Of a stretch of DNA of 64,000 bases, positions 3,620 to 52,439 are shown in pieces (position 1 is the first letter of the stretch; every line of letters starts with the position of its first letter). The stretch comes from Podarcis pityusensis. Lineage: Eukaryota. Made by a program: the position numbers and the translations under genes. The stretch lies in NCBI GenBank assembly GCA_964106645.2, contig OZ067038.1; one strand, given 5' to 3'. The notes under the pieces are model-generated. The model did not search any database. It was not told the origin of the DNA and saw only the letters and a program-made list of their open reading frames with translations.

Positions 3620-4925
3620 CAATGGGGGGGGGAAGTACACCCTCTTTGAATTCTGTGGTTTTACATATTAGAACATAATAAAAATCATGTGTTCCTTAGG
3701 TTTTAAAATTAGGTAAATATAACCACAGATGAACAACAACACAGGACATATTACACTGTGTCAAGATTTATTTAACAAAAATAAAACCAAAATGGAGAAG
3801 CCATGTGTGAAAAACTAAGTACACCTTACGATTCAATAGAACCACCTTTAGCAGCAATAACTAGAAGTAATTGTTTTCTGATGACTTTATCAGTCTCTCC
3901 CATTGTGGTGGAGGATTTTTGGCCCACTCTTCTTTACACCATTGCTTCAGTTTGTTGGGTTTGCTGGCATTTGTTTATGCACGGCTCTCTGGTCTGGATT
4001 TTGACTGGATCATTGCAACACCTTGATTCTTTTCTTTTTCAGCCATTCTGTTGTCGATTTGCTGATGTACTTGGGACCATTGTCCTATTGCATGACCCAA
4101 TTTCAGCCAAGCTTCAGCTTTTGGGCAGATGGCCTCGAGTTTGACCCTAGAATACTTCTCTGTACAGAGGAGTTCATAGTCGGACTCAATGACTCCAAGG
4201 TTCCCAGGTCCTGTGGCTGCTGAACAAGCCCAATTCATCACCGCTTCGCCACCCTGCTTGACAGTTGGTACGAGGTGTTTGTGCTGATATGCTGTGCTTG
4301 GTTTTGGCCAAATGTGGTGCTGTGCATTTTGGCCAAACAACTCCACTTTGGTCTTGTCTGTCCAAAGGACATTGTTCCAGAAGTCTTGTAGTTTGTTCAG
4401 ATGCAACTTTGTAAACTCTGCTGCCATGTTCTTGTTAGAGAGAAGAGACTTTCTCCTGACAGCCCTTCCAAACAACCAACTGTATACTGGTTCAGTCTTT
4501 TTCTAGTTGTACTGTCATGAGCTGTAAGACTGATGCTAAATGAGGCCTGTAGATCCTGTGATGGAACTCTTGGGTTTCTTGCAATTCTTCTGAAAATTGC
4601 ACTGTCTGACCTTGGGGTGAATTTGCTGGGACGTCCACTCCTGGGAAGATTGGGAACTGTCTTGAATGTTTTCCGCTTTTGAATAATCTTTCTTACTGTA
4701 GAATAATGCACGTTAAATTGGGTAGAGATGGTCTTATAACCCTTCCCAGTTTCATGGGCAGCAACAATTGCTTCTCTAAGAGCATTGCTGAAGTCTTTCC
4801 TCCTTGGCATTGTGTTAAAACACATCTGAATGCGCCATCAAACTGCTAAAAATTTGACTTTTGTAGAGATAGTCACAATTGCTGATGATCAATTAACCAA
4901 CACCTGTCTGCTACTTAGCCTCATA
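3620..4925 (-). mobile_element. Tc1-like (Sleeping Beauty-type IR/DR) DNA transposon, degenerate
   Basis: Transposase from ATG 4810: MPRRKDFSNALREAIVAAHETGKGYKTIS...LPRSGRPSKFTPR (paired-like HTH, GRPS linker), frameshifted into VLWTDKTKVELFG...PTVKQGG..NWACSAATGPG. The left TIR has a repeated AAGTACACC motif (~3633 and ~3817). No right TIR seen. Confidence 0.9.
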
Positions 4926-9010: not shown

Positions 9011-11062
9011 AATTAATACTCCAGGGATGGGAACACAAACTTTTAAAATAAAGGAAAAGTTGCGTCTGGTTGCATGCATTATTTATCCCTCCCCAAATCA
9101 ATTTAACTTTTCATTATCCAAAACAGTTTTTAATCTAAATTAAAAGAACAAAGTATTTCAATCAACAGACTGAAAAAGATTGTTTCATTTGAGCCATGAC
9201 ACATTACAGCCCAACACCATGAAAAATCTTGCAGCAGTGGTCTGGTGGAGAGAAGGAAAATGGGGTACCAGCAGAACTGGAAGACATTGACTCAGACTTT
9301 GGGGAGGGGGAGAAGTCTGCTTCAGTGCCATCAGACACATTGGGTGCCACATGACAGCTGCCTCATGATGCCTGGGGCACCTCCCACCCCCAAAAAACCT
9401 CCTCCCATCAAGGAGGTGCCAGCGGGCAGATCAGACACAAAGCCTCCAGCTCCATGGACTCCAGCTCCATCGCCAAGGACACAAAGATGGCTGCACCTGC
9501 ATGAACAAACTCAGCAAACCCAGACAGTTCAAAGGAGTGCCACTTACTTGCCCAGTCCTGTTTCTTGGAGCGCCAACCATATTAATGCCAGTATCCATTC
9601 TGCTCTTCAAAATGAGAGTCTGGGGGACATGGCCCAGTTTGTGCTTAGTCAGATATTTTAACCTCTGCTGCAAATGCTAACCAGTGTGCTTTGTAACCTG
9701 ACTTACATCCCATAGTGATCTATGCATTAAAGCTATCAGCAAAACCTGAGTTGAGAACATGAGTGCTGCATCCACCAGTGAGAGCCAGGGGGCACACAGA
9801 AATGAGGCTCTTGAGAGTGAAAAGGGTTAGTGAGACAGGACTTGTCTGCAGAAGCCATGCTGATTTTTTCCAGCAGGACATATTCTTCCCATCAGTTTTC
9901 CCAGAGCAGATTCTCTAACTGGCCTGTAATTTTCTCAATTCACGCACCTGATCCAGTTTTTTAAAAAGAGTATTATGTTAACCTCTTCCCAGTTCTAATC
10001 TTTTTGCCATACTGCCCAGAACTTTGTTTCTTGTCCCTCTTATTTGTCTCATTTCTTCAGATTCTGTTTCTGATAATGTCACTCCAGGTACCAGTATCTA
10101 TGCTCCATCTCCCGCAGTAAAAACAAACGGAAATGATTAAATCAGCTTCCTCACAATCACCGTTGCTTCCTTCAGCACACCTTTAACTCCACTGCTGTCC
10201 AAAGAACCAACCACTTCTCTAGCTGCTTATGATGTATTTAAGCACTTTTTAAATTGTTGGTATTAATATTTTTAGTGAAATGCATAGCCCATAAATTTAC
10301 ATACTGTCATAGCAATAATTAAACTCACAAACTTTAATTGCTCAGAACTTCACAGCTTTTCTTAACTGATTGTTGGTTATAGTATTCAGATCATTTCCAT
10401 AGCAGTGAAGAGTTCTGAAAATGTTCAAAGAAAGGGACATCTGTTAGAAGGCACTCTTCACAAATTTTGCAGTGCTACCAAATCATTACTTCTTTCTTTG
10501 ACTGATAGTCTGGCTCTAGTCAGATCTAACAGAGCTAAATCTCCTCTGTACTGTCCATTATATATTACTAAATCACTAGTTAGATGATTCTAACAAATTC
10601 TAAACAACTTTAGAATTTCTCTTAAATGTACTGTTTTCGCTTTTTTTAAACAGCACATAATAATCTCCTCTAGTTTATTTTCTGAATTTTGAGGCAATGG
10701 TTGGCAATACATCCCTATGCTTGGTTTGCATAGACAAATTGGCTTACTTTGCCTTCAGTAGTTATACCAGGATGTCAAATGGAGGATTTCTACAAACAAT
10801 ATGCTGGTACCTTACATTTCACAATGCGCAGATCATAGCAGTACATAAAATTAATTAATTAATTAATTAATTAGCCACCCTTAGGCAAAGAGGCTTTCTG
10901 AGTCACTTACAAAAATCAGTACTAAGGGAGTCCCTGTCCTAAGGCTCATAATCTAAAACAGGAGTGAGGAACAGGTCTTCACTGGCTATTTATAGTGGGT
11001 CCCACTACATGATGACTACAAAGCTTAGTAATTTGTTATTTAGTACAATTCATGCAATTCAA

Positions 11063-11803
11063 GATAACAAAATGAATTCCAATAGGGATAAATTTAAGGT
11101 TCTCCACTTAGGCAGGAGGAACCAGACGCACAAATATAGGGTGGGGGACACCTGGCTTACTAGCAGTACGTGTGAAAAGGATCTAGGGCTCCTGGTGGAC
11201 CACAAGCTTAACATGAGTCAACAGTGTGATGCAGAAGCAAAAAAAGCTAATGCTATTCTAGGCTGCATCAACAGAAGTCTAGTGTCCAGATCAAGGGAAG
11301 TAATAGTCCCACTCTCTTCTGCCTTGGTCAGACCACACCTGGAATACTGGGTCCAATTCTGGGCACCACAATTTAAGAAGGATGTTAACAAGCTGGAACA
11401 TGTGGAGAGGAGGGCAACCAAGATGATCAAGGTCTGGAAACTAAGCCTTATGAGGATCGGTTGAAGGAGCTGGGTATATTTAGCCTGGAAAAGAAGGGCT
11501 GTCACATGGAAGGTGGAGCCAGCTTGTTTTCTCCTGCTCTGAATGGTAGGACTCGAACCAATGGCTCCAAGTTACAAGAAAGGAGATTCCGACTAGACAT
11601 GCGAAAATACTTTCCGACAATAAGAGCTGTTTGACAGTGGAACAGTCTCCCTCGGGAGGTTGTGGACTCTCCTTCCTTGGAGGTTTTAAAGCAGAGGTTG
11701 GATGGCCATCTATCATGGATTCTTTAGCTGAGATTCCTGCATTGTAGGGGGTTGGACTAGATGACCCTTGGGTCCCTTCCAACTCTAAAATTCTATGATT
11801 CTA
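11063..11803 (+). mobile_element. CR1 LINE, 5'-truncated, small internal deletion
   Basis: RT C-terminus NRDKFKVLHLGRRN...[20 protein letters not shown] and an ATTCTATG-type tail. Confidence 0.92.
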
Positions 11804-15345: not shown

Positions 15346-17593
15346 ATCCTGGCATTCTATCAACCATATGTAAATAGGCCAGGCTGAAGGGTACTCTTGG
15401 ATTCCCCAGTTTGCAGCTCTCTTCAGGAAGAAGTCAGCTCCTGCCCCAGACTTTGCATCTCCCTAATGTAAAGAACTGGTTTACTTGACCAGACAGAGAA
15501 GGGGCAGATGACAGGAAGGAAGGGTTTTATGGTATTATATTTTATTTTTTAATCCATGTTATAGCCTTTCAAATGTTTTTAAAAACTATATATTTAAATT
15601 CTGTTTTTAAATTGTGTGGCTTTTTTTTTTTAAAAAAAAAGCAAAAATAAAATTATGAAACTGATAAACTGAGAATGACAAATAATTCTCCTTTACCCAC
15701 CTGTTTTCTACAGGTCTGCAGTACAAAAGCTTCCCCCACTTATCAGCTCCTTAGACTCCTTCTTTGTGCTGTTTTGTGCGTGTGCAGTTGAGATTTATTT
15801 TTTTTAAGTTTGAAGAAGGTCTGCCAAGCATAATTAATATTCCTCCTCCACATTCACATTACCATTTCTCCTGACAGTAAAAATTAAAGCATCCAGTTCT
15901 ATTCATTCAGCCCCAGCCCACGGGAATTCAGTCACACAGGAAGACTTATGAGGAAGCCAAAGGTTTGTAGATCTGCAGTCAGTCAGTCAGCCAGCCAGTC
16001 AGTCATGGCGCTGCACTCATTCAGTTACTTTTGTGGACGAAGTGTCTCTTACTCCATCCGGATTGGGTGTTTGCCAGTGACACTCCTGAGCCTTGCTCAG
16101 AGAGAATGGCAGCCTTGAGAAAGCCATGCACTAGTGATTCAGTTCCCCTCTTTCTTATGATAGGAACAGCTGCCGTATTGTTGCAGTCTTCCTTGTACCA
16201 GGGAGCGTTGCCATGGGCACTGCTGCCAAGGAGCACAGAGCAGTGAATAAGAGAGGCTGTCCCCAAACCTTCAAAACTAAACCTACTTATTATACTGTGT
16301 ATTTTGTTTCAAATAACCTTTTGCCATGGGAGAAAGTTTTATTCTTGTTCTAAACATTGTTGACAGATGTATAATTCGGCTACTTAAATAGATGTTTAAT
16401 AACCAGGGAGAAGATGCCGCTAAACATTCTACTTAACATCAGGCTTATTTTCTGTGATTATTAAAATGTCATTCATTGCACTGCATTATCAGTTTTCACA
16501 GGACTTAATTTGTCAAGCATTCAAAAAGAAGATCACACAAACATTTTACAGATGTGCGTGCGCATTTGCTGAATTCTTGCCAGTAAGTAAAATAAAAAGT
16601 AAATCTGGGAGATGTTAAAGACGTCTTGCAGGTGATAAAGAGGTTGTGGCGGTGGCAACATCAAGCGCATTTGCCAAGTAAATAGCTTATCCAGATTATA
16701 AATGAATATTTACCCAACTGCACCATGACCTTTAACTGAGTCTGCGTCCAAAGACACTGTCATCAAACAAGTAAGAGTAAATAACAGTAGGAATAACAGT
16801 CATGCTGTCGGCTGCGGGGAGAATGTTAGATGGCTAGGCATTCCAGCACTGGAGAGTGGACCAGCTTTGGAAACAATTAAATTAATATTAAAACGTTCTT
16901 AGCATGGCAGAACATTGCAACACAGGAAAGGCTGTGACTTTCAGTTTAGAAGAAAGGCGGACGTGAATGAGGTTTATAACATAATTGGTTTGGAGAGAAA
17001 GAGGTTTCACCCTTTCCTAAGACTAGAACTTAGGTTCAGAATGAAGCTGATGGCCTGTAGCTTCAGGACATAGAACTCAATAGCCCAAGAGGTACAGCTA
17101 CGAGGTGTTTGTTGTTGTTTGTTGTGTGGAATTAGACAACTTCAGGGAACATTCTGTGCTTAATCACTGAACAGAAAGAACGTGTGTCTGAATAGAAACA
17201 TAGGAAGCATAAGATGCTGCCTTATATCAGGTCAGAGCAGTGGCCCATTTAGCTCACTGCCGTCCACACTGGGAGTAGCCAACATGGCGCCCTCCATTGA
17301 TTGGTGGGGCTACACTGTGTTGGAAGTGTTTAGAAATGTGGTAGCTATGTAAACATGCAAAAAAAAAAAAAAAGGAAGATGGTATATGAGGAATTAAAAA
17401 AAAAATGTTCCTCACATTCCAAAAAAAAAAAAAAACCCCAGAAGGCTTTCTTCTAGCTATAATAGGAAAGGAGAAAAGAAAGGAAAGGACACATTTTATT
17501 TTTTGCAATGCAACAGCAGCCCCAATAGCAGTTTATGCAAGAAACTGGAAAGAAAAGGTTATCCTGACAAAAGACCAATGGTTGCATAAATTA

Positions 17594-17810
17594 CAGTGGT
17601 ACCTCAGGTTAAGTACTTAATTCGTTCTGGAGGTCCGTTCTTAACATGAAACTGTTCTTAACCTGAAGCACCACTTTAGCTAATGGGGCCTGCCGCGCCG
17701 CCGGAGCATGATTTCTGTTCTCATCCTGAAGCAAAGTTCTTAACCTGAAGCACTATTTCTGGCTTAGTGGAGTGTGTAACCTGAAGCATATGTAACCTGA
17801 GGTACCACTG
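17594..17810. mobile_element. Tigger/pogo-type MITE
   Basis: Perfect 18-bp TIR CAGTGGTACCTCAGGTTA and TA TSD. Confidence 0.92.
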
Positions 17811-17915
17811 TAATAGAATTTGCAGATGGCTAAAATAAGGAACTAGCTAGAGAGGAAGATAAGGAGCAAGTGGTAATGTCTTGGAGAATACTTAAAAATA
17901 TATGGCATTACTGTA

Positions 17916-18271
17916 CAGTGGTGCCTCGCAAGACGAAATTAATTCGTTCCGCGAGTTTTTTCGTCTTGCGGTTTTTTTTCGTCTTGCAAAGCACGGTGTC
18001 GGAAAAGTTTTGGAAAAGCTTCAAAAATCACCAAAGTCTTCAAAAACCTCAAAAAAGGCTACCACACCACGTGCTATGAGTTGCTCCTCGAAGTCAAGTC
18101 GCAACTGTATTAACGGTTTTAAGAAAAAGGAAACAAACTTGCAAGACGTTTCCGTCTTGCTAAGCAAGCCCATAGGGAAAATTGTCTTGCGAAGCAACTC
18201 AAAAAACCAAAAACCCTTTCGTTTTGCGGGTTTTCCGTCTTGCGAGGCATTCGTCTTGCGAGGTACCACTG
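17916..18271. mobile_element. Tigger/pogo-type MITE (short form of the 33167-34000 family)
   Basis: TA|CAGTGGTGCCTCGCAAGACGAA...TTCGTCTTGCGAGGTACCACTG|TA; internal CGTCTTGC repeats. Confidence 0.92.
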
Positions 18272-18707
18272 TAAATATAATCTGCAAGTAGGGACAAACC
18301 TTTGAAGAGCAGTTGACAAAACAAGGGAAGTGAAGGGACGAAATGGAGTGGAGAAACTAACGGAGATGCAGCCAACTCAGGATGTCACTGAAGGATAGGA
18401 TGGGAAGTCTGCTTGGGAAGATGGGAAGATTATAAATGTATGTAAAATAAAAACTGGAAATGCATAGATATAAATAAATAAGAATGTTTTTTGTGGGGCT
18501 ACAACTCCCGCCTTTCCTGTCCATTGGCCATGCTAGATCAATATTGTCTACGGGAGTAATAATAATAATAATAATAATTTATTACGGCCGTAGGCCCATA
18601 CAGATAAAAACAAGACATAAATAACAGCCTGTGCACGTGGGAAAAAACAGCCGCTAAAACACTACTATAACAATAAAATACTATAAGATGGAATGGCATA
18701 CTACGCC

Positions 18708-21700
18708 TTAATTAGCTTGTGGTGCTCCTTGGCAACGCTTTTGGGTAAGGACAGCGACCAGGAACCTAGCCACTTTCAGGGTCGTATGGGTATCCTTATC
18801 CTGCAAGATTTGGGCAAGGTGGAATTTTGGTGGAGTACCCTCTAGTTTCTGTATGATTGATCCCAACAAATTTGCCCGTGGCACCTTGAATAAGGGGCAA
18901 GTGAACATAATGTGCTGAAGCGACTCCGGCGTCTCCTTATCACATTCGCACATGGCGGAGGCTTGGCCCTTTGAGAATCTATGTCTCAGGACATTGGAGG
19001 GAAAAACATTAAACCTCGCTTTGGTGAAGGCCAGCCTATGGGCAACAGTCGAAAGGGAGGAGAGGTATGATGGAACGCAGTAAGTTAAAGTGATACCAAT
19101 GTTCTGGGGCGAACAAACACCTCCCCCCAGCATATAATTTCGCTGTAAATCGATGTCATCCAGTCTTTGGCGGATCAGTCTTTGAGCAGTGATTTGATCT
19201 AGTTTTAGGGAATCTAAGGGAGAGATTCCATAGCTCAGGAGTTTGGCATGAATTCTACTGGTCCAAAGGCTGGAGAATTCATCTCGCCATAAGCATTGGG
19301 CAAGGTAATGGTCTGGTAATCTATGCCACAATGATAACCAATAGTTGAAGACTTGCTTCCACAGGCAAGTTTCTAAGGATGCGATCTTCAATTCTAGTCG
19401 CATGGCTGCGTTGCTTACGCACAGGGGGAGCATTAGGAGCCGACGTAGGAATTGGTTTTGCAGAGTCTCAAGAGGAGCAAGGTCTGTCATCACGGCCCAG
19501 AGCGGGGCAGCATAAGCAAGCACAGGAACCACTTTTGCCTTGAACACCTTTAGGGCCGAGGGAACATGCAAAGCTCCATCCGAAAAGAAAAATCGGAGGA
19601 GCGCATATGACAGAGTTTTGGCCTTGTTAAGTAGGTGTTGAATATGTGCTTTCCACCCCAAATTGTATTGAAAAATAACTCCTAGGTATTGAAATTTTAG
19701 GACTTGCTCTATTTTTGCTCCACCAAGCTTCCATTCGTATAATCTCCGACTTCTGGCGAAAATCAGAATCTTAGATTTAGCATGATTGATGGTTAATTGG
19801 TTGAGTTGACAATACGTGGCAAAGATCTTCAGAGCTCTGGTTAGTCCAACACGTGTATAAGATAGAATTACCGCGTCGTCCGCATATAAAAGGAGTGGAC
19901 AGCGGTAATCCGCTAGTCTAGGCGCATGTGTACTTGGAGATGAGTTGACTAGGGGTGCTCGCATGTCGCTGATGAATAGATTGAATAGGCAGGGAGCCAA
20001 TATACATCCTTGGCGCACTCCCTTGTTTATTGGTATCGAATTTGTGAGGTCGCCCGCAGGAGTAAGTCTCACTCTGGCAAGGGTACCTTCGTGGAGCTGA
20101 CTTATAAGCCATAAGAGTCTTCTATCGATGCCCTGTTTCGCAAGTTTCTCCCAAAGAATATTTCTAGGAACGCTGTCAAAGGCTGCCTTAAGATCTAAGA
20201 AAGCAGCACACAGGTAGCCCCGGGGAGGGGAGGAGTACTTCCGTGCCAGATGGTAAAGAACTATCGCATGATCAGTTGTAGAGCGTTTAATTCTGAACCC
20301 TGCTTGTTCGTGGCCAATCTGGTTAGTCTCATCTACCCATCGCAATAGTTTTGTCAGCAAAAAGCTGGCATAAATTTTCCCTATGATCGAAAGGAGGCTG
20401 ATGTTACGGTAATTTTCCGGCTCCATTGGAGAACCTTTTTTATGAATTGGTACTATAATGGCCTCCTTCCATATTTTGGGGATGAGACCAGAAGCGTTGA
20501 TTGCGTCGAAGGTTTTGGCCAAGATGCCAGCCCACCATTTTGGGTGTAGTTTGATGGCTTCAGCAGGGATCAGGTCGGGCCCTGGGGCTTTGCCCGATTT
20601 CAGCTGGGCTATTAGCTTGGCTATTTCGTCAGGATCGGTGGGAGGCCAAATAGGTAGGTGGGAAAACAGATGCATCAGATGGTCGGAGGGAGCATCTGCC
20701 TGTGAGAAACATTTCTTCAGGAACAATTCCCATGTCGGTGCAGGGATGACTGCCCTTGGGTATTTCCTCACCCTTCTGTTAATCAGAGACCAGAATTCCC
20801 TGGATCTATGTGATTTTGAAGCAGTAATCAAGGCCTGCCAGCGATTATGTTGCCACTCACGTTTGGCAATTTTCTGTGTGCGTTTGTAAACTTGCTTGGC
20901 TTGTGCATAACTAGCTGGCAGAGTAGATGCATCGGAGGTCTTATATACATTATATATAGCACGAAGGCGCTGTCTTGCTTGTTTGCACTGAGAGTTATAC
21001 CAGGGGGCACCGTAAGTATACTCGTTTCGATTTAATATTTTGGGTGGTAACCTGAAGAAGGACGTAAGATCAGTCGTATGATGGTGGAAGCGTTTCAACA
21101 CTATGCTATGCTCGTCTGAGGCAGAGCCTATGTAGGGATGGGGCCCGAGGATTTCTTTTTGAAAGAATTCCTGATACCTTTGAGCCTGGGTCTCCGACCA
21201 TTTGATTCCTCTTACTTGGAGAGATACGTTGGTTACCATCTGGGTCGCATGTCTATAGGCCTCCGACTGCCAATTCAGGGAAAGCTTGGCTACAAGGGGA
21301 AGATGATCACTAGATTGTACATTCTCGATCTTAAAGGTGGAAATACACTTAAGTAGATCACTGGAGACCAGCAGGTAATCGAGGACGCTGTTTGATTTAA
21401 CACTCAGGTGAGTGAAATCCCCTGGAATATCAGGGAGGCATGTGCGATTTAGGGGGACCAGATTTAAACGGATGGCCATTTGGTAGAGGAATACTCCAGC
21501 CTCATTAACTCGTTGGTCTTTAGAAGTTCTCCTCATGATATGTTCCAGATCATAATTATCAAGGTTTGGGATAACCCACCATTTGGCTTTGGTCAGCGAG
21601 TCCCAATTTGCTGCTGTGCGGGCATTAAAATCGCCACCTATTATGGCCGGGGTGTTAGGAAACTTGACATAGCATGAGAGCAAATGCTCTTCTAGCGAGC

Positions 21701-22091
21701 CCCATTTAGAGCCCAGTTCGGAGGAAGAACCCCCGGGTGGCAAGTAAACATTTGTAACTAGAAGTGAGATCTTTTCCCCCGCAATCAGCCCGGTAAGGGC
21801 GTAAGGAGGCAAGGCCTGTACTAGAGTAAATTTAGAATGTAAGTTGAGGGAGATGCCTATTATTAGGCCCCCTTTAGGGCGGCCTCCTTTCAGGGAGGGG
21901 CAGGCAGGGAGTTCTAGAAGCTCAAAGCCATTTAGATCAATTCTCTCTACTTCCCACGATTCTTGGAACAAGATGATATGAAACAGGTTAATATACTCCA
22001 AGAATTCTGGGTCAAGTTTTTTCCCCCTCCAGCCCGCAATGTTCCAGCTGAGGACTGATAGGGGGGAGTTCCTGTTGTAACCAATTCGCTG
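18708..22091 (-). CDS. LINE ORF2: APE endonuclease + reverse transcriptase + C-terminal CCHC zinc knuckle (no own AUG before the endonuclease)
   Basis: APE motifs SWNIAG, FQESW, YLPP, GDFNAR, LDY, SDHLP. RT motifs QAGFR, FLDLKAAFDSV, GVRQGCILAPCLFNLF, YADD, YLGV. C-terminal CECDKETPESLQHIMFTC. Open from the codon after the ORF1 stop (1127 codons). Confidence 0.93.
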   Translation of the reverse strand, partial: QRIGYNRNSPLSVLSWNIAGWRGKKLDPEFLEYINLFHIILFQESWEVERIDLNGFELLELPACPSLKGGRPKGGLIIGISLNLHSKFTLVQALPPYALTGLIAGEKISLLVTNVYLPPGGSSSELGSKWGSLEEHLLSCYVKFPNTPAIIGGDFNARTAANWDSLTKAKWWVIPNLDNYDLEHIMRRTSKDQRVNEAGVFLYQMAIRLNLVPLNRTCLPDIPGDFTHLSVKSNSVLDYLLVSSDLLKCISTFKIENVQSSDHLPLVAKLSLNWQSEAYRHATQMVTNVSLQVRGIKWSETQAQRYQEFFQKEILGPHPYIGSASDEHSIVLKRFHHHTTDLTSFFRLPPKILNRNEYTYGAPWYNSQCKQARQRLRAIYNVYKTSDASTLPASYAQAKQVYKRTQKIAKREWQHNRWQALITASKSHRSREFWSLINRRVRKYPRAVIPAPTWELFLKKCFSQADAPSDHLMHLFSHLPIWPPTDPDEIAKLIAQLKSGKAPGPDLIPAEAIKLHPKWWAGILAKTFDAINASGLIPKIWKEAIIVPIHKKGSPMEPENYRNISLLSIIGKIYASFLLTKLLRWVDETNQIGHEQAGFRIKRSTTDHAIVLYHLARKYSSPPRGYLCAAFLDLKAAFDSVPRNILWEKLAKQGIDRRLLWLISQLHEGTLARVRLTPAGDLTNSIPINKGVRQGCILAPCLFNLFISDMRAPLVNSSPSTHAPRLADYRCPLLLYADDAVILSYTRVGLTRALKIFATYCQLNQLTINHAKSKILIFARSRRLYEWKLGGAKIEQVLKFQYLGVIFQYNLGWKAHIQHLLNKAKTLSYALLRFFFSDGALHVPSALKVFKAKVVPVLAYAAPLWAVMTDLAPLETLQNQFLRRLLMLPLCVSNAAMRLELKIASLETCLWKQVFNYWLSLWHRLPDHYLAQCLWRDEFSSLWTSRIHAKLLSYGISPLDSLKLDQITAQRLIRQRLDDIDLQRNYMLGGGVCSPQNIGITLTYCVPSYLSSLSTVAHRLAFTKARFNVFPSNVLRHRFSKGQASAMCECDKETPESLQHIMFTCPLFKVPRANLLGSIIQKLEGTPPKFHLAQILQDKDTHTTLKVARFLVAVLTQKRCQGAPQAN

Positions 22092-23891
22092 TCATTTCGG
22101 GGAGGGATGTGAGTCCTTTGGAGGCAAGGCAGACCCCACGAAAAAGTCAGTTATTTTACTTTGCATAGCAGGCACCTGCTGAAGGTACCTAGTCTTGAAG
22201 TTGGTAGTGAGGTATTCTGACTGGGGCGACAAAACGGGTCTCCCGCTGGCTAACCCAAGGGCGGACACTTCAGTGGGAAACTCCACAGGATTTGCTGAGA
22301 CTGCCCCACCGCAAGGTCTAAAGGTCGCCGATGAAACCATTTGGTTTATATGTCCGGTCGGGTCTTCAATCAAATCCGGGCCATTTTTTGATGTAGGTGG
22401 GACACTCCCCTGACCTGATGCTGGCAAAGGTACAGGGGATGTTCGGCGTACTGGTACCGTTTGTATGTCGGGTCTATGCCGCTCAGGGGAGTATGAGGAC
22501 TCCAGTTCCGGCATTGATGGATTAGATGGTAAGGAGTTGTTTTGGTGGAAGGAACTCTGAGTTACACTCCTCAGCGGGGGACTCTTGGAGGGCGAGTCAA
22601 AATTTATCAAGAGTTGGGATGAGGGGCCAACTTGAGAGGCAAAACCTGGGTCTGCCAAGCGTCGGTGGGTTTTGCCCACAAGTGGGGGAGGCATGGGTTT
22701 AGGAGCTGGACTAAGGTATGGAAGACTTCCTGCTTCCTTAAACCACGACTCCGAAAAGCTGGCAGAGTTATCCTGAAAAGTGGGCAGGACTTTTCCATTC
22801 TTCTGGACATGTATGAGCTGATGATTAAGTACTTCTAGTCTATCAATTATTTCTTGTTGTTCTCTCGGTGGAAGGTCGCCAAAGGTGGCTAAAAGCTCTC
22901 TTTCCTCCGGCGGGGTCAGAGAATTACTTGCGCCAGTGGGTTTCTTTAGAGCTCGTGGGGACGTAGGGTGAGTCCAGTTTCGGTGCGGATGGATATCCTC
23001 CAGGAGAGGAGGCTCGATGTCCCGAGGTACTCCCGACCTCTCCGACAGAGTCCACTCCGTACCGTGACCAGCAAGTAGGAGGGGGTGGATCATGCTATCC
23101 ATAAAAACTCTTGTTGGGATGATATCGTACCTTGCCAAGAGTGGTTTCTGCCTGATGATAGCTGAAGGGATCCTTGGAGAGTAAAACGCAAGCATCACTT
23201 TCTGTTGCCCGAGGTGCTGGTTCAAAGGTAATACTGCAATGAGATCGCATTGTGAGATTTCTATGTTTAGGAGATTGCTTAGGTGCTTTTTAACCCCACT
23301 CAGAGTAAGCCACCTTGGTGACCCTGCCCCAATGTTTAGGCAGATTTTCTTAGGTTGCAGGGACAATGCTTGATGTTTCAGTGCAGGATTTGGTTTATAT
23401 TTAGGGATCACACTTCTTTTTTTGGTAGAAGGCAAGGACCTCTGGCACTTCAATTCCCCCGTATCTACAGTTGGTTTAAACTTTGACCAGAAGTTATCCA
23501 TTTTCTGTTCGAGGTTACATAACTGGGAGGCTAGCACATCAATCTTCTTGAATATGCAATTAAGGGTTCTGACCACAAGATGGAGATGTTCATGTTGTTC
23601 TTGTCTTGCGCAGTCCTCAGTTCCAGCGTCCTGCACCACCCTCAATGGGACACTCCCTCTTCCTCCAAGCTTGCCGTCCGCAGTTTTAGTCTGAGGTAAA
23701 AATAATTCCTCTGGTGTTGACATTGTTTCTTGAGACATTAGAGGGTAGAAACGGTTCTGAGTTTTCACCCTATAGCAGAGTTCAATGGGGTCACTCCGTT
23801 TGTCAGACACGGGGGGGTCGATTTTTAATTGTTTGGCTCTTGGGGAGGGCAGAGCCTCGTCACAATCCCTTAGGCGTTTGCCTTGGCCCAT
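22092..23891 (-). CDS. LINE ORF1 protein (599 aa from ATG 23891)
   Basis: Good Kozak context (ACG ATG G), NRFYPL motif, predicted coiled coil LNCIFKKIDVLASQLCNLEQKMD, Pro/Ser-rich C-terminal half, QSKITDFF near the end. The ORF-track start at 23957 is a TTG. Confidence 0.8.
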   Translation of the reverse strand: MGQGKRLRDCDEALPSPRAKQLKIDPPVSDKRSDPIELCYRVKTQNRFYPLMSQETMSTPEELFLPQTKTADGKLGGRGSVPLRVVQDAGTEDCARQEQHEHLHLVVRTLNCIFKKIDVLASQLCNLEQKMDNFWSKFKPTVDTGELKCQRSLPSTKKRSVIPKYKPNPALKHQALSLQPKKICLNIGAGSPRWLTLSGVKKHLSNLLNIEISQCDLIAVLPLNQHLGQQKVMLAFYSPRIPSAIIRQKPLLARYDIIPTRVFMDSMIHPLLLAGHGTEWTLSERSGVPRDIEPPLLEDIHPHRNWTHPTSPRALKKPTGASNSLTPPEERELLATFGDLPPREQQEIIDRLEVLNHQLIHVQKNGKVLPTFQDNSASFSESWFKEAGSLPYLSPAPKPMPPPLVGKTHRRLADPGFASQVGPSSQLLINFDSPSKSPPLRSVTQSSFHQNNSLPSNPSMPELESSYSPERHRPDIQTVPVRRTSPVPLPASGQGSVPPTSKNGPDLIEDPTGHINQMVSSATFRPCGGAVSANPVEFPTEVSALGLASGRPVLSPQSEYLTTNFKTRYLQQVPAMQSKITDFFVGSALPPKDSHPSPK

Positions 23892-25566
23892 CGTTATGAG
23901 TCTTTTAAAATAGCAGTGCTTAAAAGATAATAAAAGGTAGTAGAAATAGAAATACAACTGGATGTGAGCTGGCGGAAAACCAGTAAGTCGAAGGCTGCTT
24001 CCAAGGCTGCCGGAGAATGCAATTATCTGCTCATTAAAGCTGATTTACGATGCAGGCTTTACAGTTATTAGCAATGTGAACTCCTGGCATGGGCTCCAAC
24101 ACCCTGATACAATCTTCAGCAAAAACTTGAAAGGCTGGGAGCCACAGCACAAATTTTAGGGAGGATTCGAGATGAACTCCGGCAAATGCGTCTTACCTCG
24201 TCGCCATCTTCTTTTTTCATCTACGGGAGTCTTTCCCAGTGCATACCTGGAGATGCTAGAGATTGAATATGAGACCTTACACATACAAATCAATTGCTCT
24301 AAAACCCTTCCCTTGTGCTGTAATAGTACAAGAGTAACAAGAAACCTCAGTGAAAGATTCTGCCACTGAACATACCAGACTAGTAACAACGCACACCAAT
24401 GAAAATTACCAAATAGATTTCCTATGGTATCTGCAAAGATCCTGATCTTGCTCTATGCTGTTTCCTGCCGCTGATTTATAGGTGAAGTGGGAATTGTAAT
24501 CTGCATGGTTCGTTTAAGTATGAAACCCAAAGAGTATGTTTAACACACAGTATGACTTGATCTTTTAATGTGGTTTACAGAAAATGTAGTGAGACAGTAT
24601 CCCTGTTTTAACTATTGCTTTTGGAGGATAAGCAGCTAGAATGTTCAGGGAAATAGCAGACTCACTAGACTTGAATCAAAGTTGCTAAATGGTTGACTAC
24701 AACAAAGGGAAAGGCATTTTCTAGCTTGGAACAAGAATGTCACTAAATAATCTATGTACCAGACACAAGTGCCAATTTATCCCCGCGACTGTGGGTGCCT
24801 GGGGCTGTGGGTGCCATGCATGGCCCTGGCACCAAAATTTGTGGGTGCCCAGCCCCTTCATGGGGAATGTTGGGCATCCAGGGCCATAGAGAGTTGGCAC
24901 ATTAGAAGATTAAGTCAGCACAGGGAAATAATTTCTCTTTCAGAAATTAGATGTTTCAAAGATGGAGCATTTGAGATCAGATTCTATCCAGCAAGCAGGA
25001 AATAGCTGAGAATTATATAGTGGCAGAAGAAAGCTTAAATTAATGATCATGAACTGATTGAGATCAGCAAAGTGAAGTTAGCTGAACAGGGACAATGAAC
25101 TTCAAAAGACTTAAACAAACTGAAAAAATGAAGTCTGTGACCATGACCAGAATTACAAAAGCATGGCCTTGACCAGAAAAATGTGTTAAAATCCTTGAGA
25201 ACCTCTTGTTTCCTTTATGACTCGCATTATGTTTGGTTTACCATTTGTTCTTAATTTGTGTTTGAAAGTCATCGTGATGAAGTCCAGTTTTAAGCATGGC
25301 TTTTGAAAAACTGAAACCAGTTGACATACAAAGAGAAAAACATCAGAGTTAGAAAAACTGCCAAACAACTAGTAGCGTATGAAGGTTTGAGTTTGGGTTT
25401 GTAGAAGGTAGGACCACCCCCAATTTAGAGAAGAGTCAAGCATATAAAACAAGGAATACCAGGTGGTAATTTCATAGAGATTAGCTGGCATGTTGCCATT
25501 TCCCCTTGGATTATTTATTTTATTATTCTTTTGTACACCACTGTTTTGCAGCTAACAGTGAGGATA

Positions 25567-28927: not shown

Positions 28928-30288
28928 TGTTATGTACTGAAGTTCTCACCCTGGGCCAGCAGAGGGACACTGTAGATAGTTATGCAAATAAGGGATCGAA
29001 AGTGACGTTCACTGATTGGATAGTTTTAGAAAATTGTTACAGTTACGTTGTACTGGAGCTCTATATAAGCAGGCTGACTGAATCCTTAGAATCATAGAAT
29101 AGAATCATAGAATCATAGAGTTGGAAGAGACCACAAGGTACATCGAGTCCAACACCCTGCCAAGCAGGAAACACCATCAGAGCACTCCTGACATATGGCT
29201 GTCAAGCCTCTGCTTAAAGACCTCCAAAGAAGGAGACTCCACCACACTCCTTGGCAGCAAATTCCACTGTCGAACAGCTCTTACTGTCAGGAAGTTCTTC
29301 CTAATGTTTAGGTGGAATCTTCTTTCTTGTAGTTTGGATCCATTGCTCCGTGTCCGCTTCTCTGGAGCAGCAGAAAACAACCTTTCTCCCTCCTCTATGT
29401 GACATCCTTTTATATATTTGAACATGGCTATCATATCACCCCTTAACCTCCTCTTCTCCAGGCTAAACATGCCCAGCTCCCTTAGCCGTTCCTCATAAGG
29501 CATCGTTTCCAGGCCTTTGACCATTTTGGTTGCCCTCCTCTGGACACGTTCCAGTTTGTCAGTGTCCTTCTTGAACTGTGGTGCCCAGAACTGGACACAG
29601 TACTCCAGGTGAGGTCTGACCAGAGTAGAATACAGTGGCACTATTACTTCCCTTGATCTAGATGCTATACTCCTATTGATGCAGCCCAGAATTGCATTGG
29701 CTTTTTTAGCTGCCGCGTCACACTGTTGGCTCATGTCAAGTTTGTGGTCAACCAAGACTCCTAGATCCTTTTCACATGTACTGCTCTCAAGCCAGGTGTC
29801 CCCCATCTTGTATTTGTGCCTCTCATTTTTTTTGCCCAAGTGCAATACTTTACATTTCTCCCTGTTAAAATTCATCTTGTTTGTTTTGGCCCAGTTCTCT
29901 AATCTGTCAAGGTCGTTTTGAAGTGTGATCCTGTCCTCTGGGGTGTTAGCCACCCCTCCCAATTTGGTGTCATCTGCAAATTTGATCAGGATGCCCTTGA
30001 GTCCATCATCCAAGTCGTTGATAAAGATGTTGAATAAGACCGGGCCCAAGACAGAACCCTGTGGCACCCCACTAGTCACTCTTCTCCAGGATGAAGAGGA
30101 ACCATTGATGAGCACCCTTTGGGTTCGGTCAGTCAGCCAGTTACAAATCCACTGAGTGGTAGCATAGTCAAGACTGCATTTTACCAGCTTCTTTACAAGA
30201 ATTGTTCAGTTCTGTCCTGGCCTGTGAATAAACAAGAGCTGTTTGAAGAATCGCTGTGTTGTCTGATATGTTCACTCACAACTTAACA
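28928..30288 (+). mobile_element. Solo LTR split by a CR1 insertion
   Basis: TGTTATG...TTAACA termini; octamer ATGCAAAT 28982, TGACGT 29003, ATTGG 29015, TATATAA 29062, AATAAA 30227. No matching TSD found. Confidence 0.65.
29087..30202 (-). mobile_element. Young 5'-truncated CR1 LINE with intact RT C-terminal ORF (29177-30115)
   Basis: [20 protein letters not shown]...FADDTKLG...[15 protein letters not shown], 312 aa uninterrupted; (ATTCTATG)n tail. Confidence 0.96.
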
Positions 30289-44599: not shown

Positions 44600-45870
44600 C
44601 TAATCTTTACGGAGGGGTCATAGTGTGCAATGATATCATTCGCATGCTTGAGTGTACCGAAGAGTTCAGAAAAGCTCTCCAGGGTCCAGGTGGCTTGGTC
44701 ATTCTGTTCCTCCTCTTTCCCACTTTTAGAGCTGGAGCTCAATCTCACCATTTCCTGCCGCGATTCCAGACTCAAGGCCTGTTGCCCCTAAATCATTTCT
44801 TCCACCTCCTCCTGGATGAGGTCACAAAGCCACTGCCACATAGGCACCAACTTGCGGCCAACATTGGGGCACCCATCATGCATGTATGACATCATATGCA
44901 CAACATGCAATGTGTGTGCCCACCCAGGCCGACTCAGCACATCACACCCCATCCACCAACCGTCCACCGTCTTACCTTTGTTCACCACCACTGTCGCGAG
45001 GCTGAGGCTGCCTCAGCGATGCATCCCCCCCCATGAGGCCCACTGAGACACTTTGGTGTGTTTCTTTGAGATCGCCAGAGCACCTTTCCAGAAGCTGCCC
45101 TGCTGATCATCAGAGGGACGTGCCAGTGCAAAGGCTCCCTTAACATTGAGGGGGCCTGGCCCCCTGCCAACAGATATTGAGGGGGCCAAAGACACTCTGG
45201 TGTTGGCGCACCTGCATTGCCACCAACTTGCCTCACAATCTGGACAATGTTTTCCATCTCAGTGGCAATGCCAGGGAATCCACTGAAATCGTCAATGCAT
45301 TCCTTTCATAGGTTGCACCAGCAGGAGCTCACGGTTTCAGGCTTGATGGCATCCCCTGTCTGCTTTAAGTGATGCAGTTGGTGATGCTGAAGAACTTCCA
45401 GAATGCCACGAGATCGAGATCTGGATCAGCATCCAGGACATCAAGTCAGCAAGGCAAGAGTGAGGCTGGTATAATGAGCCTTGAAGTAGTGAACCACCCC
45501 TTGATCCAAAGGCTGGATGAGTGAGGTCGTACAGCGAATGGGGGGAGAAAAGCAACTCTGACATGCTTGTGTTCAAATTGCAGTCCCTGCACGTAACCAG
45601 AAGCACTGTCCACTAGCAGAAGCACTTTGAACTCCAGCAGGTGACGCCTCATCTCTAGAACAAAGCATTTGTGGAACCAGTCCAGGAAGTTTTCAGCAGT
45701 CACCCAGGCCTTCTTGTTGGCCTGCCAGCAGACAGGCAACAGGTTCTTGTTCTTGCCTTTGAGGGCACAACAATGCCCAGACGCATTGCCAAAGAGCAGC
45801 ACAGTCAACCGATCCTTCACAGCTTTAAACTCAAGGGCACCTTTTCTGCTTTGGCAATGTAGGTCTGGTG
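44600..45870 (-). pseudogene. Tigger/pogo (TIGD1-like) transposase remnant with later insertions
   Basis: FKAVKDRLTVLLFGNASG...WQANKKAWVTAENFLDWFHKCF...KVLLLVDSA...FLPP (DDE_1 core), then IVRQVGG and WTLESFSELF...YDPS further 3'; frameshifted. Confidence 0.85.
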
Positions 45871-47524
45871 GAAGTTGGATGTGACATAAGATGTGGAGGA
45901 AGGTACAGGAGATAATGTTAATGCATAAATCAACATGTGAGAAGTAAAAACCCATCTACACCAAATCTGACATAATATATGTCTATCTGTGAAAGTAAAG
46001 TTTTTTAATTCAGGACAAGGTGTGAAGAATTAAATGTTCCATGTGAGAAGGTAAGAGAAGCATTCAGTTCTGCTTTAAACATTTTAAATGTTGTGCCAGT
46101 TCAAGAACAGCAGCACAAAAGAACACTTATCTGCAGGTGGCCACTTACAAAAGGCGTTGTTGTAAGCATTATTTAGGTATTGGAGCCTGTTTCATCATAG
46201 GAAGATTTCTGGCTGCTACTGTGTTTATAAATATGCAAAAACAGGAGGGTGGGAGGAATAACAATGTGGCAAAACCCCTCCAGTGATGGGCGCTGTATCT
46301 GATACAGTTTTATCCTGCATGTAATGGCCTTCAAGCCAATAACATGTCTACTCAGAAGTAAGCCCCATTCAATAAAATATAATTTACTCCCAAGTAGGTG
46401 TGCACAGAATTGCAAGCTTAGTCAAGAAACAAGTGGACTCTGGACCCTTGTCCCATCTCAACATGCCAACCCCCTAGAGGCTAATAAGCTTCTGAGCTCC
46501 TGGAATTTAGTCAGGAAAACAGAGTTTGGGGTTAAAGTATCGGTTAAGCAGTCAAAACAATACATCCATAGTTAGTGTTTATGAATACCAAGAGAGAGAG
46601 TGGGGGAATTCAGTTTCTCTGACCAATTTCCAGCAGGCCCAATGGCAGCACCCACCTCCTGCGCCTGTTGATGGTGCATCTGAACCCAGCAGAGCCCACG
46701 AAAGATGCCTGCCCCGCCCACTTTTAGTTTAGCCTCCATTAAAATTTCCCAGGCTGCCCCGACAAAGCATTGTTCCAAAGCCTTGTGAGAGAGCAACATG
46801 GCAGCTAGACGCTGCTGTCCTTCATAACCAGGTAAGCCCACCATGCCATGATGGAGAAGGGCCTTCCCCCAGAGGCTATTTTACTGAGGGGCCCTTCCAA
46901 TTTGGAGCCAGTCCTACTTCAGATCCCCAAATATTTGAACTTATTTACATCATCATCATTTACTGTTAATGTTTTATTGAAGACTCGGCACTGAACTACT
47001 TTCCCCACTGGACCACGCTGGCTTGTGCTTGTTCCAGCCTCCTCTGCAATTCTGTAAATAGTTTCAAAAGACTCTGATTTTATCAATATATGAAGAATAA
47101 CTGTTAAATACTCTCTACTTCCTGAGAGGGGATGTTTGAGGGGCTATGATAAGACATTTATGGGGTAGCACTGTTTGGGGTTGGGTTTCCTTTGGATGAG
47201 AGAGCACTGAGGACTCGTGGCTTTCTTGTAATGTTTGCTTTATTTACAAATATGGGGGGGACAGCTCTTACAAGGCAACAAATTTGCTACTTCCTTATCA
47301 GACCAGAGAGGTCATGCCCTCTCCCATGTCTCCCACCAATTCACACACAAAAATATCTCCCTCTGCTTTGCCTTTTCCAAAGTATAAGGTGCTGTTTTGC
47401 CCACTTATAGCCCCACAAATCTGATGTCTTGACTTAGCTGCCTTTCCCCAGCACTGAGGGATAAACCATTCAAACAGAGACCTCAATTATTTCGTTTTCC
47501 CCATCTCCCATCTGCCAGCCATTC

Positions 47525-48193
47525 CAGTGGCGTAGCGTGGGTTGTCAGCACCCGGGGCAAGGCAAGTAATTTGCGCCCCCTAACCCGTGGATTTTGCGCC
47601 CCCTAACCCGTGGAGCGCGGCCCCCCAGATGTTGCGCCCGGTGTGGCCGGCCCAGCCTGCACCCCCCACGCTACGCCACTGTAGCACAGAACACCATCCC
47701 TAATCCTGCAACTGCAAAAAGTTCTGCAACACAGCACAACAGACCGTGCAAAAGGATCGTTGTTGATGCTTTTATTAAAAAAATGTAAACAACAGCCATC
47801 TTTATTTACACTATGAGCTAACTGTCTGAGATGGGTAAAACCAATCCCAAAGGGCCCTTACAAACAGTAGATTATGCTACATTTTCCTTGTTTAAATCCA
47901 CAATGTTTTGGTTTTTTTAAATGCACTCTACCTCCCCACCCTTATACCCTTTCCACCCAAGACGTACACCTGATGCCTTTGTCACACATTACATGCACCC
48001 AACCCCTTCCCTGCAGTCAGCTAGATTTCCCTCGCAATAAACGTGGGTGGGTAGGTACCGGAGAAGGGAAACCTGAAAAGAGGAAGTGGCTGCTTTCCTG
48101 CATTCTGCCTCAGGGTCTTACTGCCCACCCTGCTCTGTTTCGTTGCTGTGTTTGCTCAAACGGAACAAAGAGCAGGGAAAGCCCCTCCCCTCC

Positions 48194-48242
<49 letters not shown>

Positions 48243-48524
48243 CCCTCCACGAGTTGTCGAGCTTGGGCAACGGCTGCGCGGCCGACAGCGAGGCGCTAAG
48301 GCGCCGGCTCCCCAGGCTGCAGCGCTTGGCCAGGCGCTGCGCTTGCATGCCTGGCCGCGCCCAGCTCGCCTCAGCGCAGCGGAAAACAGAAGCAGTGGCG
48401 GAGACGACGACCCCCCACCCCAACCAAGCCTCGATTGCTTGTCCCTTCCCTCTGGACTCGCGCCCCCCCAGGTGTTGCGCCCGGTGCGGCTGGCACCCCT
48501 GGCACCCCCCACGCTACGCCACTG
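47525..48524. mobile_element. Composite hAT non-autonomous element with a duplicated right end
   Basis: Left TIR CAGTGGCGTAGCGTGGG; right TIR CCCACGCTACGCCACTG ending at both 47681 and 48524; 8-bp TSD AGCCATTC at 47517-47524 and 48525-48532. Confidence 0.88.
48198..48239. repeat. (GA)n microsatellite
   Basis: Visible directly in sequence. Confidence 0.95.
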
Positions 48525-49172
48525 AGCCATTCTGGGCCATGGACTGGCAGGCTGTCTAACAGATGAATGTTTGGCTAGCAGCTTTTAACAATACTTGGGC
48601 TTGCTGCCAACTCTAGGGCAGCTTTCCCTGTTTTCCCAGTTAAACTAGTGACTAGTTGGGATTCCATGTTGCCTTCTGGGCCAGGCTTCCTACTAGAAAG
48701 CTGTCTAAAATACCAGTTGACCAGCTGCAGGGTGCTCATCACAGATGCAGTTCTGGTTTGGCCCTTGGAGAAGAGTGGAAGGAAGAGGACAACACTGGTC
48801 CTTACAACTCCAGAACATTCCCCCTGTTGCTATTTGTACTGTATTTGTTAGAAAATGTCTTTTACAAAGAATAAATTGTACTGGGGAAAAGAAAACATAT
48901 GTAATGTAGCGGCTGCAAAGCAGGTGAGTCCAATCAAGGTCACAGAAACTCTGAATCATTGCCCTTTTAACTTGTTAACTGCCTTTAAAAGTAAAAGAGA
49001 GAGTGTCTGTCTGTCTGTCTTAGAAGTGAGGGTGAAAGTTGGAGGTTGGCTGGTTGCATCGCCGTTATTTTGTTGACTGGGAACATGGGAGTGTGAAGAA
49101 TTCAAGCAGACTCTTTCTGGAAGAGCTTATAAAGACAGGCAAGCTATGGACTAATGATTTACACATTGCTGT

Positions 49173-51572: not shown

Positions 51573-52439
51573 GACTTGTTTACTAGCTGGGGATAATGCT
51601 CCATGAATCTGCTGAAGTGAGATTTATGTTAATCAGTAGAGTCTACATTAAATCTGGGTCTTGTAGGTGCCACAAAATATATGGTGGTTATTTTTTGGTA
51701 TGTCTTCTTTTTGTATCACTCAGTTAACAGAAATGGAACAACAGACAGCTGTTTTTGCAAGTACATACAAATAGTGTGATGAAACATGTTTATGTAAATG
51801 TAAGTTCCACTGAAATTAATCTGGCTTCCAAATAAATGGGTTTAAAACTGGACTGAGAAACAATTAATGGGTGCAGCCAAGTGCATACAGCAATTGCCAT
51901 AAATAGGTTTCTGGGCAAAGAAGTGTTGAGCTCAACTGTCAAGGGATATTGTGATTTCCGTGCATGTTGCCTTGGGGCTGAAAAAAGGCCAGAAGCATTC
52001 ATTACTCTTATAATCTATTGTATACTATATTATTTATGAAAGTAGGTTTCCAGCAGTAAAGTTTCCTGATCTTCTTTGTGGCTTCCCTTTCTAAAATGAA
52101 TTGATTTATTTAACACCCCCCTCGGGTCAACAAACTTTGTTCCTGACCTGGCATGACTCTAGTATTTGGATCCTGGGCTGACTCTGCCAAACTATTTAGT
52201 GGTTCTGTGATAGAGGCAAATATTTTCTTAGAACAAGGTTAAACATTTTTGCCTGTGATCAGAGATATTTTTGGATTTCAGCTTCCAAACCTTTTATGGA
52301 GGCAAAACTAAGAAGTGCGTGTGATATTTTGAAGTATTCAATGGCCTGAAATAAATGCCTAAGAAGCATATTCTAAAGATTTCAGCATACTAGGCCCAAG
52401 CGGGACTCTATCTGTTCATACTTCTAGTAATTTATGAGG

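Follow-up and report, generated by a model that had tools for sequence, protein, structure and literature searches.

Readthrough of an in-frame stop codon is an established route to gag-pol in gammaretroviruses and is used by many RNA viruses. For long interspersed nuclear elements (LINEs), translation of the second open reading frame (ORF2) has been described as an open question, the routes considered being stop-start coupling, reinitiation, internal ribosome entry and 2A (PMC3894237). A 64,000-nucleotide stretch of the lizard Podarcis pityusensis (contig OZ067038.1, assembly GCA_964106645.2; hereafter the window) carries on its minus strand a complete LINE, 24219-18558, 5662 bp, in which both ORFs are intact and lie in a single frame, separated by one UGA. 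Judged from sequence, this in-frame stop junction is real, appears to be family-wide and is repeated in distant LINEs, and it is most simply read as programmed readthrough.

Several described systems resemble this junction in part. Gag-pol of the gammaretrovirus murine leukemia virus (MuLV) is alike in having a structural ORF, a single in-frame stop, an enzyme ORF and a low fixed ratio of products, whereas the lizard element is of the kind that lacks long terminal repeats (LTRs), encodes an APE endonuclease and no protease, and has a UGA-CAG stop context with a predicted hairpin at +27. Candida Tca2 also has two ORFs, an in-frame UGA and predicted 3' structure, but it is an LTR element (PMC2194720). 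Mammalian L1 shares the bicistronic organization with APE, reverse transcriptase (RT) and CCHC, a 5' YY1-type motif and a coiled-coil-type ORF1, and its ORF2 AUG is dispensable in assays; it differs in having a spacer between the ORFs (63 nt long in human and with two in-frame stops in rat), a natural AUG, no fusion and a poly(A) end, and the rat L1 data argue against an ORF1-ORF2 fusion. The UAAUG coupling of SART1 is similar in its stop/AUG overlap and in the structure downstream of the junction, whereas in the lizard LINE the overlapping AUG (22095) is out of frame with ORF2 and is the start of no listed family protein. Finally, 2A/StopGo LINEs (Ingi, L1Tc, some CR1/L2) place a recoding event just ahead of the APE domain that lowers ORF2 output. 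The lizard LINE differs from these in having a true stop codon and a full ORF1, and 2A skipping was rejected for it, there being no DxExNPGP motif in the junction translation.

The junction reads CCG AAA TGA CAG CGA ATT GGT TAC on the minus strand. ORF1 (22095-23891, 599 aa) extends from the ATG at 23891 to the TGA at 22094-22092, and its frame continues past the stop as ORF2 (18708-22091, 1127 aa), which is open from 22091 to 18711 (1127 codons) and closed by a TAA at 18710; if read through, the two would give a fusion of 1727 aa. The original prediction had started from this one-frame, single-UGA arrangement, and it was reproduced exactly. The codons behind the stop are open and include the SWNIAG motif (ORF2 codons 15-20), the TTG at 22001 is codon 31, and the first in-frame ATG, at 21536, is codon 186, with no AUG ahead of it, all as previously noted. 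An AUG that overlaps the stop (AUGA, AUG at 22095) opens merely a 27-codon out-of-frame ORF (22012-22095).

Where would translation have to enter ORF2? The first in-frame AUG is downstream of most of the endonuclease catalytic motifs, including GDFN at residue 153. In a confident model of the endonuclease (predicted local distance difference test, pLDDT, 94.6), with a fold resembling APE1, ExoIII and the L1 endonuclease, residues 1-10 are unstructured and the first core strand spans residues 11-17; translation must therefore enter the ORF2 frame at or before about codon 11. By this model, ordinary AUG initiation would be unable to yield an intact endonuclease, in agreement with the earlier claim. 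A functional start at TTG 22001 or at ATG 21536 was rejected, as each loses core endonuclease elements. The ten codons between the stop and the first endonuclease strand (22062-22091) form a linker with a run of six C at its end (22066-22061). A further candidate, initiation at the AUGA with a frame change in the GGGGGAAAAAAC run, was also rejected, that run being located downstream of the WN motif.

The position of the stop in lizard relatives was followed through gene-caller proteins rather than DNA, and 5' truncation or the choices of the caller may explain single cases. Six ORF1 relatives were found (the ORF1 query covered proteins of up to 1049 aa). Three of them extend to the C-terminus (79, 86 and 92% identity), and all three terminate at the same codon, after Lys; the other three are an early-ending protein, a partial one and a chimeric gene model. 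No full ORF1-ORF2 fusion is present among 13 ORF2 matches of 619-1973 aa. Fifteen of 17 same-family ORF2 proteins were listed, derived from P. muralis, P. lilfordi and further contigs. Seven of these begin at codon 186, two at codon 31 and the other six further in or at a foreign exon; none of the 15 starts ahead of codon 31 or is a fusion, and the longest is at most 1097 aa. A search for short N-terminal fragments gave one match, and six of eight lacertid-like clusters lack any start ahead of the first motif. Possible ORF1-endonuclease fusions in P0189 (Naja), P0108 (Phrynocephalus) and P0006 (Podarcis) were left uncounted, being gene models that may represent spliced or broken copies. Judged from these protein ends, the stop position appears to be a family feature. 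A nonsense mutation private to one copy of a single-ORF element was rejected because three relatives share the ORF1 end and no fused form was found; on these sequences, a copy-specific lesion or an in-frame upstream AUG is unlikely. Both had been named beforehand as observations that would count against readthrough (a sense codon or fusion at the stop, and an upstream in-frame AUG), and neither turned up among the protein proxies. Eight further proteins (P0009, P0098, P0136, P0155, P0146, P0168, P0212 and P0218) carry 75-384 open codons ahead of the endonuclease, extensions that could be long linkers downstream of an in-frame stop or parts of fused ORFs.

The same layout recurs in distant LINEs. 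A scan of genome contigs gave five loci (L001-L005) with six LINE-type elements, and the junction could be read in three of these; in L002 and L004 the frame is still open where the contig ends, and the first L005 element is truncated, which makes them uninformative. The five loci are eukaryote-type LINE DNA inside bacterial genome records (Sedimenticola, Chitinophagaceae and a proteobacterium) and probably represent contamination, as does the similar P0080. In L001 (27% identity), which falls in an invertebrate-type cluster adjoining the squamate cluster, the end of ORF1 is followed by one TAG and an in-frame ORF2 with its first Met at codon 57, behind the first motif. In the second L005 element, a more remote one, an ORF1 frame of 739 codons is likewise followed by a single TAG and then by ORF2 in the same frame. 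Here a Met (codon 56) precedes the motif by five residues, so a Met close to the motif can coexist with an in-frame stop. The probability of an in-frame single-stop layout arising by chance is 0.04 for L001 and 0.023 for the second L005 element. A reassigned UAG in the hosts of L001 and L005 was discounted as unlikely, with one UAG in >1300 and >2000 codons, respectively.

L003 is a decayed relative of L001, with 16 stops and several frameshifts, that retains the TAG and a linker of 85 nt (87 nt in L001). Between the two, 20 of 24 bases are identical around the stop and 8 of 42 upstream. In the stop region 6 of 7 third positions agree whereas just 3 of 7 amino acids do, compared with 48% third-position identity across the endonuclease, and a match of this quality was reached in none of 20000 shuffles. 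Read from sequence, this is the pattern that a nucleotide signal centred on the in-frame stop would give. L001, L003 and the second L005 element all have UAG-G with a predicted stem starting between +7 and +10, resembling the Type III arrangement of MuLV. The conserved block around the TAG (L001 525-548, L003 2900-2923) of these two diverged LINEs of invertebrate type is a readthrough candidate in its own right. The GC-rich distant LINE at L005 3401-9463, which follows closely on a related element of like orientation, has an in-frame TAG-GGU, a strong hairpin (+10 to +35) and, read by eye, what may be a 4-bp pseudoknot stem.

In the lizard element the candidate readthrough site, AAA-UGA-CAG-CGA (22086-22097, stop at 22094-22092), matches CAR-NBA and has adenines at -1 and -2. 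CAR-NBA and 5' adenines are each reported to stimulate readthrough in yeast, CAR-NBA having been described for UAG (PMC3159437). Among the 2252 TGA triplets in the window, 0.4% are followed by CAR-NBA, a context chosen post hoc, and 18% are UGA-C. Relative to the Type II contexts of alphaviruses and tobraviruses and to the yeast/tobamovirus context (PMC3159437), the lizard site is alike in UGA-C, the -1/-2 adenines and CAR-NBA, but different in being neither CUA/CGG nor CAR-YYA, and a stem after an 8-nt spacer is not robust across folding windows. The Type III context, UAG-G, is absent from the window element. The leaky context claimed at the outset thus stands for CAR-NBA and the 5' adenines, and does not extend to CAR-YYA, CUA or CGG. 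A robust hairpin is predicted from +27 to +69 after the stop (22023-22065). Among 561 windows of 60 nt across the element none gives a more stable fold, and the hairpin persists across most folding windows. An Rfam scan gave no match, and nothing prominent emerged when long-range pairing partners were sought for the bases after the stop.

Programmed readthrough to an ORF1-ORF2 fusion is our best reading of the lizard LINE and one that we consider somewhat probable; this and the likelihoods given below for other routes are judgements, not computed values. Full-length RNA would be translated from the ORF1 AUG after ribosomes scan past, or reinitiate behind, short upstream ORFs (uORFs). Most ribosomes would terminate at the UGA and release ORF1p, and a small share would incorporate an amino acid at the leaky A-A-UGA-CAG-CGA, perhaps with help from the downstream hairpin, and go on to make the 1727-aa fusion. 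A disordered tail of about 230 aa would then tether the endonuclease and RT to ORF1p. Readthrough would set a low ORF2:ORF1 ratio and could bring the enzyme into the ORF1p particle, as in gag-pol. Readthrough by the ribosome, its efficiency, a role for the hairpin and the persistence of the fusion as an uncut protein are all parts that we infer. The interpretation as first proposed keeps the family-wide stop, the lack of a fused or upstream-AUG form and the recurrence of the layout on its side; its step from a missing AUG to the exclusion of reinitiation did not hold.

The chance that ORF2 is in frame and open up to the motif is about 0.195, which makes the layout weak evidence if taken alone. 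A number of observations count against readthrough. The lizard UGA-CAG-CGA fits neither CAR-YYA (Type I) nor CUA/CGG (Type II). A fold 3' of the stop had been suggested as a check and a hairpin is indeed predicted, but it begins at +27 and not at the +8 to +12 of known stimulatory structures, and its shuffle z is only -1.5 to -1.9; the prediction of an outer stem from +9 depends on folding windows that end near +110 to +140. A yeast reporter with the in-frame UGA junction of Tca2 showed no readthrough, and the junction contained a promoter (PMC2194720). Since the distant loci use UAG and fall outside the squamate cluster, they are evidence for a recurring layout but not for its use in the same way by the lizard family; within the L001/L003 pair, 42 of 590 endonuclease windows are conserved as well as the junction. 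Two of the eight lacertid clusters, the P0001 group (including RefSeq XP_028581310.1) and Zootoca P0232, have a Met at codon 11, giving a classic APE N-terminus five residues before the first motif. A wider squamate survey comprised 149 representative matches and 12 earlier ones, 66 of them in the squamate group; 26 were scored with the first motif and 6 dropped as misplaced. Of the 20 remaining proteins, 8 have a Met 8-25 residues ahead of the motif Trp. Four of these 8 begin 'MT', which suggests AUGA overlaps with an in-frame AUG in other squamate families. In the lizard element the AUG of the AUGA lies 16 codons plus one base ahead of the motif Trp, and its A-UGA-C may be inherited from such an overlap rather than selected for leakiness. 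The codon-11 sister families and this possible inheritance had been passed over by the original prediction, as had the splice route considered below.

The strongest competitor, fairly unlikely in our judgement, is an L1-like termination-reinitiation that needs no AUG, in which ribosomes restart at the near-cognate AUU (codon 3) or at any codon before 11 and make free ORF2p, the hairpin helping as in SART1. The claim that the lizard LINE is unlike L1 in this respect is not supported: L1 ORF2p translation is itself reported to be AUG-independent (PMC11485995) and calicivirus reinitiation tolerates changed or non-AUG start codons (PMC5972666), and hence the missing AUG does not force a fusion. 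The AUU lies 7 nt after the stop and about 17 nt ahead of the hairpin, SART1 requires structure downstream of its stop-start (PMC3894237), and the sister families retain a Met at codon 11. However, reinitiation does not predict the in-frame open layout, either in the lizard or at the two independent loci, with the probabilities given above, and the out-of-frame AUG at the stop should capture restarting ribosomes, an expectation drawn from the calicivirus work (PMC5972666). A UGGGG at -44 is one mismatch away from the UGGGA core that the termination upstream ribosome-binding site (TURBS) has 40-90 nt ahead of the stop, although the exact UGGGA does not occur within 150 nt upstream of the stop.

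Production of ORF2 from a spliced mRNA is improbable. Here the AUG at +13 and a donor at 24196 would be joined to an acceptor behind the ORF1 stop, removing ORF1. The 5' end of the element carries a YY1-like motif (24210-24202) with the first AUG, followed by a near-consensus donor (GT at 24196; together 24191-24210), and this AUG, 12 nt from the element 5' end, opens a 4-codon uORF with a stop that overlaps the donor. Its context is one that we take to resemble the translation initiator of short 5' untranslated regions (TISU). The donor agrees with the consensus at 7 of 9 positions, and its 7-mer core is found 13 times among 128,001 positions; nevertheless, nine other sites in the element score equal to or above it. 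Two AG acceptors are in phase with it (22047-22073; first exon bases 22071 and 22047), the second with 14 of 17 pyrimidines, and would give 1124- and 1116-codon frames that keep SWNIAG, a further point against readthrough; as four AGs lie between the stop and the motif, chance alone would place one or more of them in phase about 80% of the time. L1 RNA is spliced from donors in the 5' untranslated region (UTR), but the spliced copies are described as dead ends (PMC5860796), and the leader AUG is contained in a YY1-type promoter motif that is frequent at the 5' ends of LINEs and is known at that of mammalian L1s (PMC5381506). Moreover, none of the 15 listed family proteins has a splice-type N-terminus, and splicing leaves the in-frame layout of L001 and L005 unexplained.

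About as improbable is AUGA stop-start coupling in a master element that has the AUG in frame, the in-frame layout of the present copy or assembly being an accident of a one-base slip in the linker, for instance in the C6 run. Homopolymer runs are prone to slippage, and the spacing of the lizard AUG matches the 14-19 residues of the 'MT' starts in four squamate relatives. Profile scores of the two linker frames (-20.2 vs -16.2 over ten residues, -6.8 vs -11.3 over five, misplaced rows included) gave no separation. Against such a slip, none of the 15 listed family proteins starts at the AUGA position, the recurring starts being those at codons 186 and 31, and where the sister family offers a codon-11 Met, these annotators take it as the start. 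Least probable of all is a reinitiation at the AUGA with a subsequent programmed +1 frameshift within the C run, or else a non-AUG start on RNA from an internal promoter: the AUG frame passes CCC-C just ahead of codon 11 and a promoter was found at the Tca2 junction (PMC2194720), but two rare events are required by the frameshift route, and the hairpin begins inside the C run and so cannot serve as a downstream frameshift stimulator.

With readthrough as the preferred reading, a plausible history, put forward as an inference, is that an AUGA overlap came into frame through the change of a single base and could persist, its stop being leaky beforehand.

The element that bears this junction is flanked by an 11-bp target-site duplication (5' copy 24220-24230, 3' copy 18547-18557), and no second copy of it is present elsewhere in the window. 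Its 328-nt 5' UTR (23892-24219) contains three short uORFs, with AUGs at 24207 (4 codons), 24090 (18 codons) and 24034 (3 codons), and its 3' UTR (18558-18707) has an AATAAA at 18583-18578 and an (ATT)n tail. ORF2 encodes the APE endonuclease (residues 11-270, 21282-22061, from domain search and structure model), with motifs WN at 16-17, QE at 43-44, GDFN at 153, LDY at 237 and SDH at 261, the RT domain RVT_1 (residues 549-807, 19671-20447) and a C-terminal CCHC motif (C1048, C1050, H1060 and C1065; 18897-18950); its best PDB sequence matches are L1 ORF2p and R2. APE and RT in one ORF, the target duplication, the simple-repeat tail and the lack of an LTR place it in the APE-type non-LTR class. 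The nearest named ORF2 proteins, from Podarcis muralis and P. lilfordi, are 95-99% identical, which points to a young lacertid family.

Within this class the element is presumably RTEX-like. The C-terminal CCHC and the microsatellite tail, both present here, are what we take to be RTEX traits, as is the LxIExGR..C..C..EDE.HF..C end of its relatives. Two ORFs and an APE-RT enzyme are further likenesses to RTEX (RTE-X), and the 599-aa ORF1 is a full ORF1, as in RTEX and in contrast to RTE (PMC3905857). The lizard ORF1 differs from RTEX in having no esterase, and no readthrough was found reported for that clade in the literature searched. Traits of the L1 clade are missing, the tail being (ATT)n rather than poly(A) and ORF1 having no significant Pfam match. 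The trees contain unnamed relatives only, with no named RTEX element, and a lookup in the Atlas returned only unnamed clusters. Two quick trees conflict over the Met-bearing P0001 family, which is basal in one and nested with P0003/P0004 in the other.

The ORF1 protein is poorly modelled (pLDDT 35.9): a long helix at about residues 90-135, an alpha/beta region at 183-261 and helices at 328-365 precede the C-terminal tail, which is of low complexity and disordered in this model, and a fold search with it gave generic helices only (best Z 5.3). The motif QSKITDFF (22140-22163, minus strand), 15 aa before the stop, has a pattern that we take to be that of a PCNA-interacting protein (PIP) box. It is identical in three ORF1 relatives (P0014, P0015 and P0018). 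At least one match to the pattern occurs in 310 of 20000 ORF1 shuffles, ORF1 has a second match at residue 230, and ORF2 has none. In L1 the PIP box resides in ORF2p (PMC11485995), whereas the PIP-like motif of the lizard LINE is at the end of ORF1; an ORF1-ORF2 fusion would therefore restore the link between PIP box and enzyme. Some of these proteins bear unrelated public names: 'verprolin-like' for P0015, a LINE ORF1, and 'myocyte-specific enhancer factor 2B' and 'zinc finger protein 341 isoform X1' for P0006, a LINE chimera, and P0230, a LINE ORF2.

The rest of the window holds RT-bearing fragments of another LINE at 29177-30205 (minus strand) and 10952-11464 (plus strand), with a weak tblastn match, which we assume to be CR1-like, and broken transposase-like frames at 3975-4837 and 45446-45955 (both minus strand), presumably Tc1/mariner-like and pogo/Tigger-like. 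Near the 3' flank of the LINE, at about 17590-17840 and 17915-18270, are two short elements with inverted CAGTGGTAC/GTGCC-type ends that by eye resemble miniature inverted-repeat transposable elements. GC-rich islands lie at about 800-2700, 47900-48600 and 52400-53300. The last of these contains a likely first coding exon ending in DDALNQIARE, which we take to be LRRFIP-like.

A search by title and start of abstract found no report of LINE ORF1/ORF2 readthrough; most subscription literature and the Repbase/Dfam notes and supplements, which may record the layout, lay outside it. As a tentative proposal, about which we are a little more doubtful than confident, an RTEX-like LINE branch extending from lizards to marine invertebrates, together with a more distant group in an unidentified eukaryote, may use a gag-pol-style readthrough fusion. 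Its families would switch between AUGA coupling and readthrough by single-base changes in the linker, the lizard fusion bringing the ORF1 PIP box beside the endonuclease. If programmed readthrough is indeed used, LINEs would have a retrovirus-like route to ORF2 and a particle of another design, in which the enzyme is covalently attached to the scaffold formed by ORF1. Such a route would also account for the loss of the endonuclease from these ORF2s in gene-caller output, and surveys based on ORFs may be scoring intact, active LINE families as broken.

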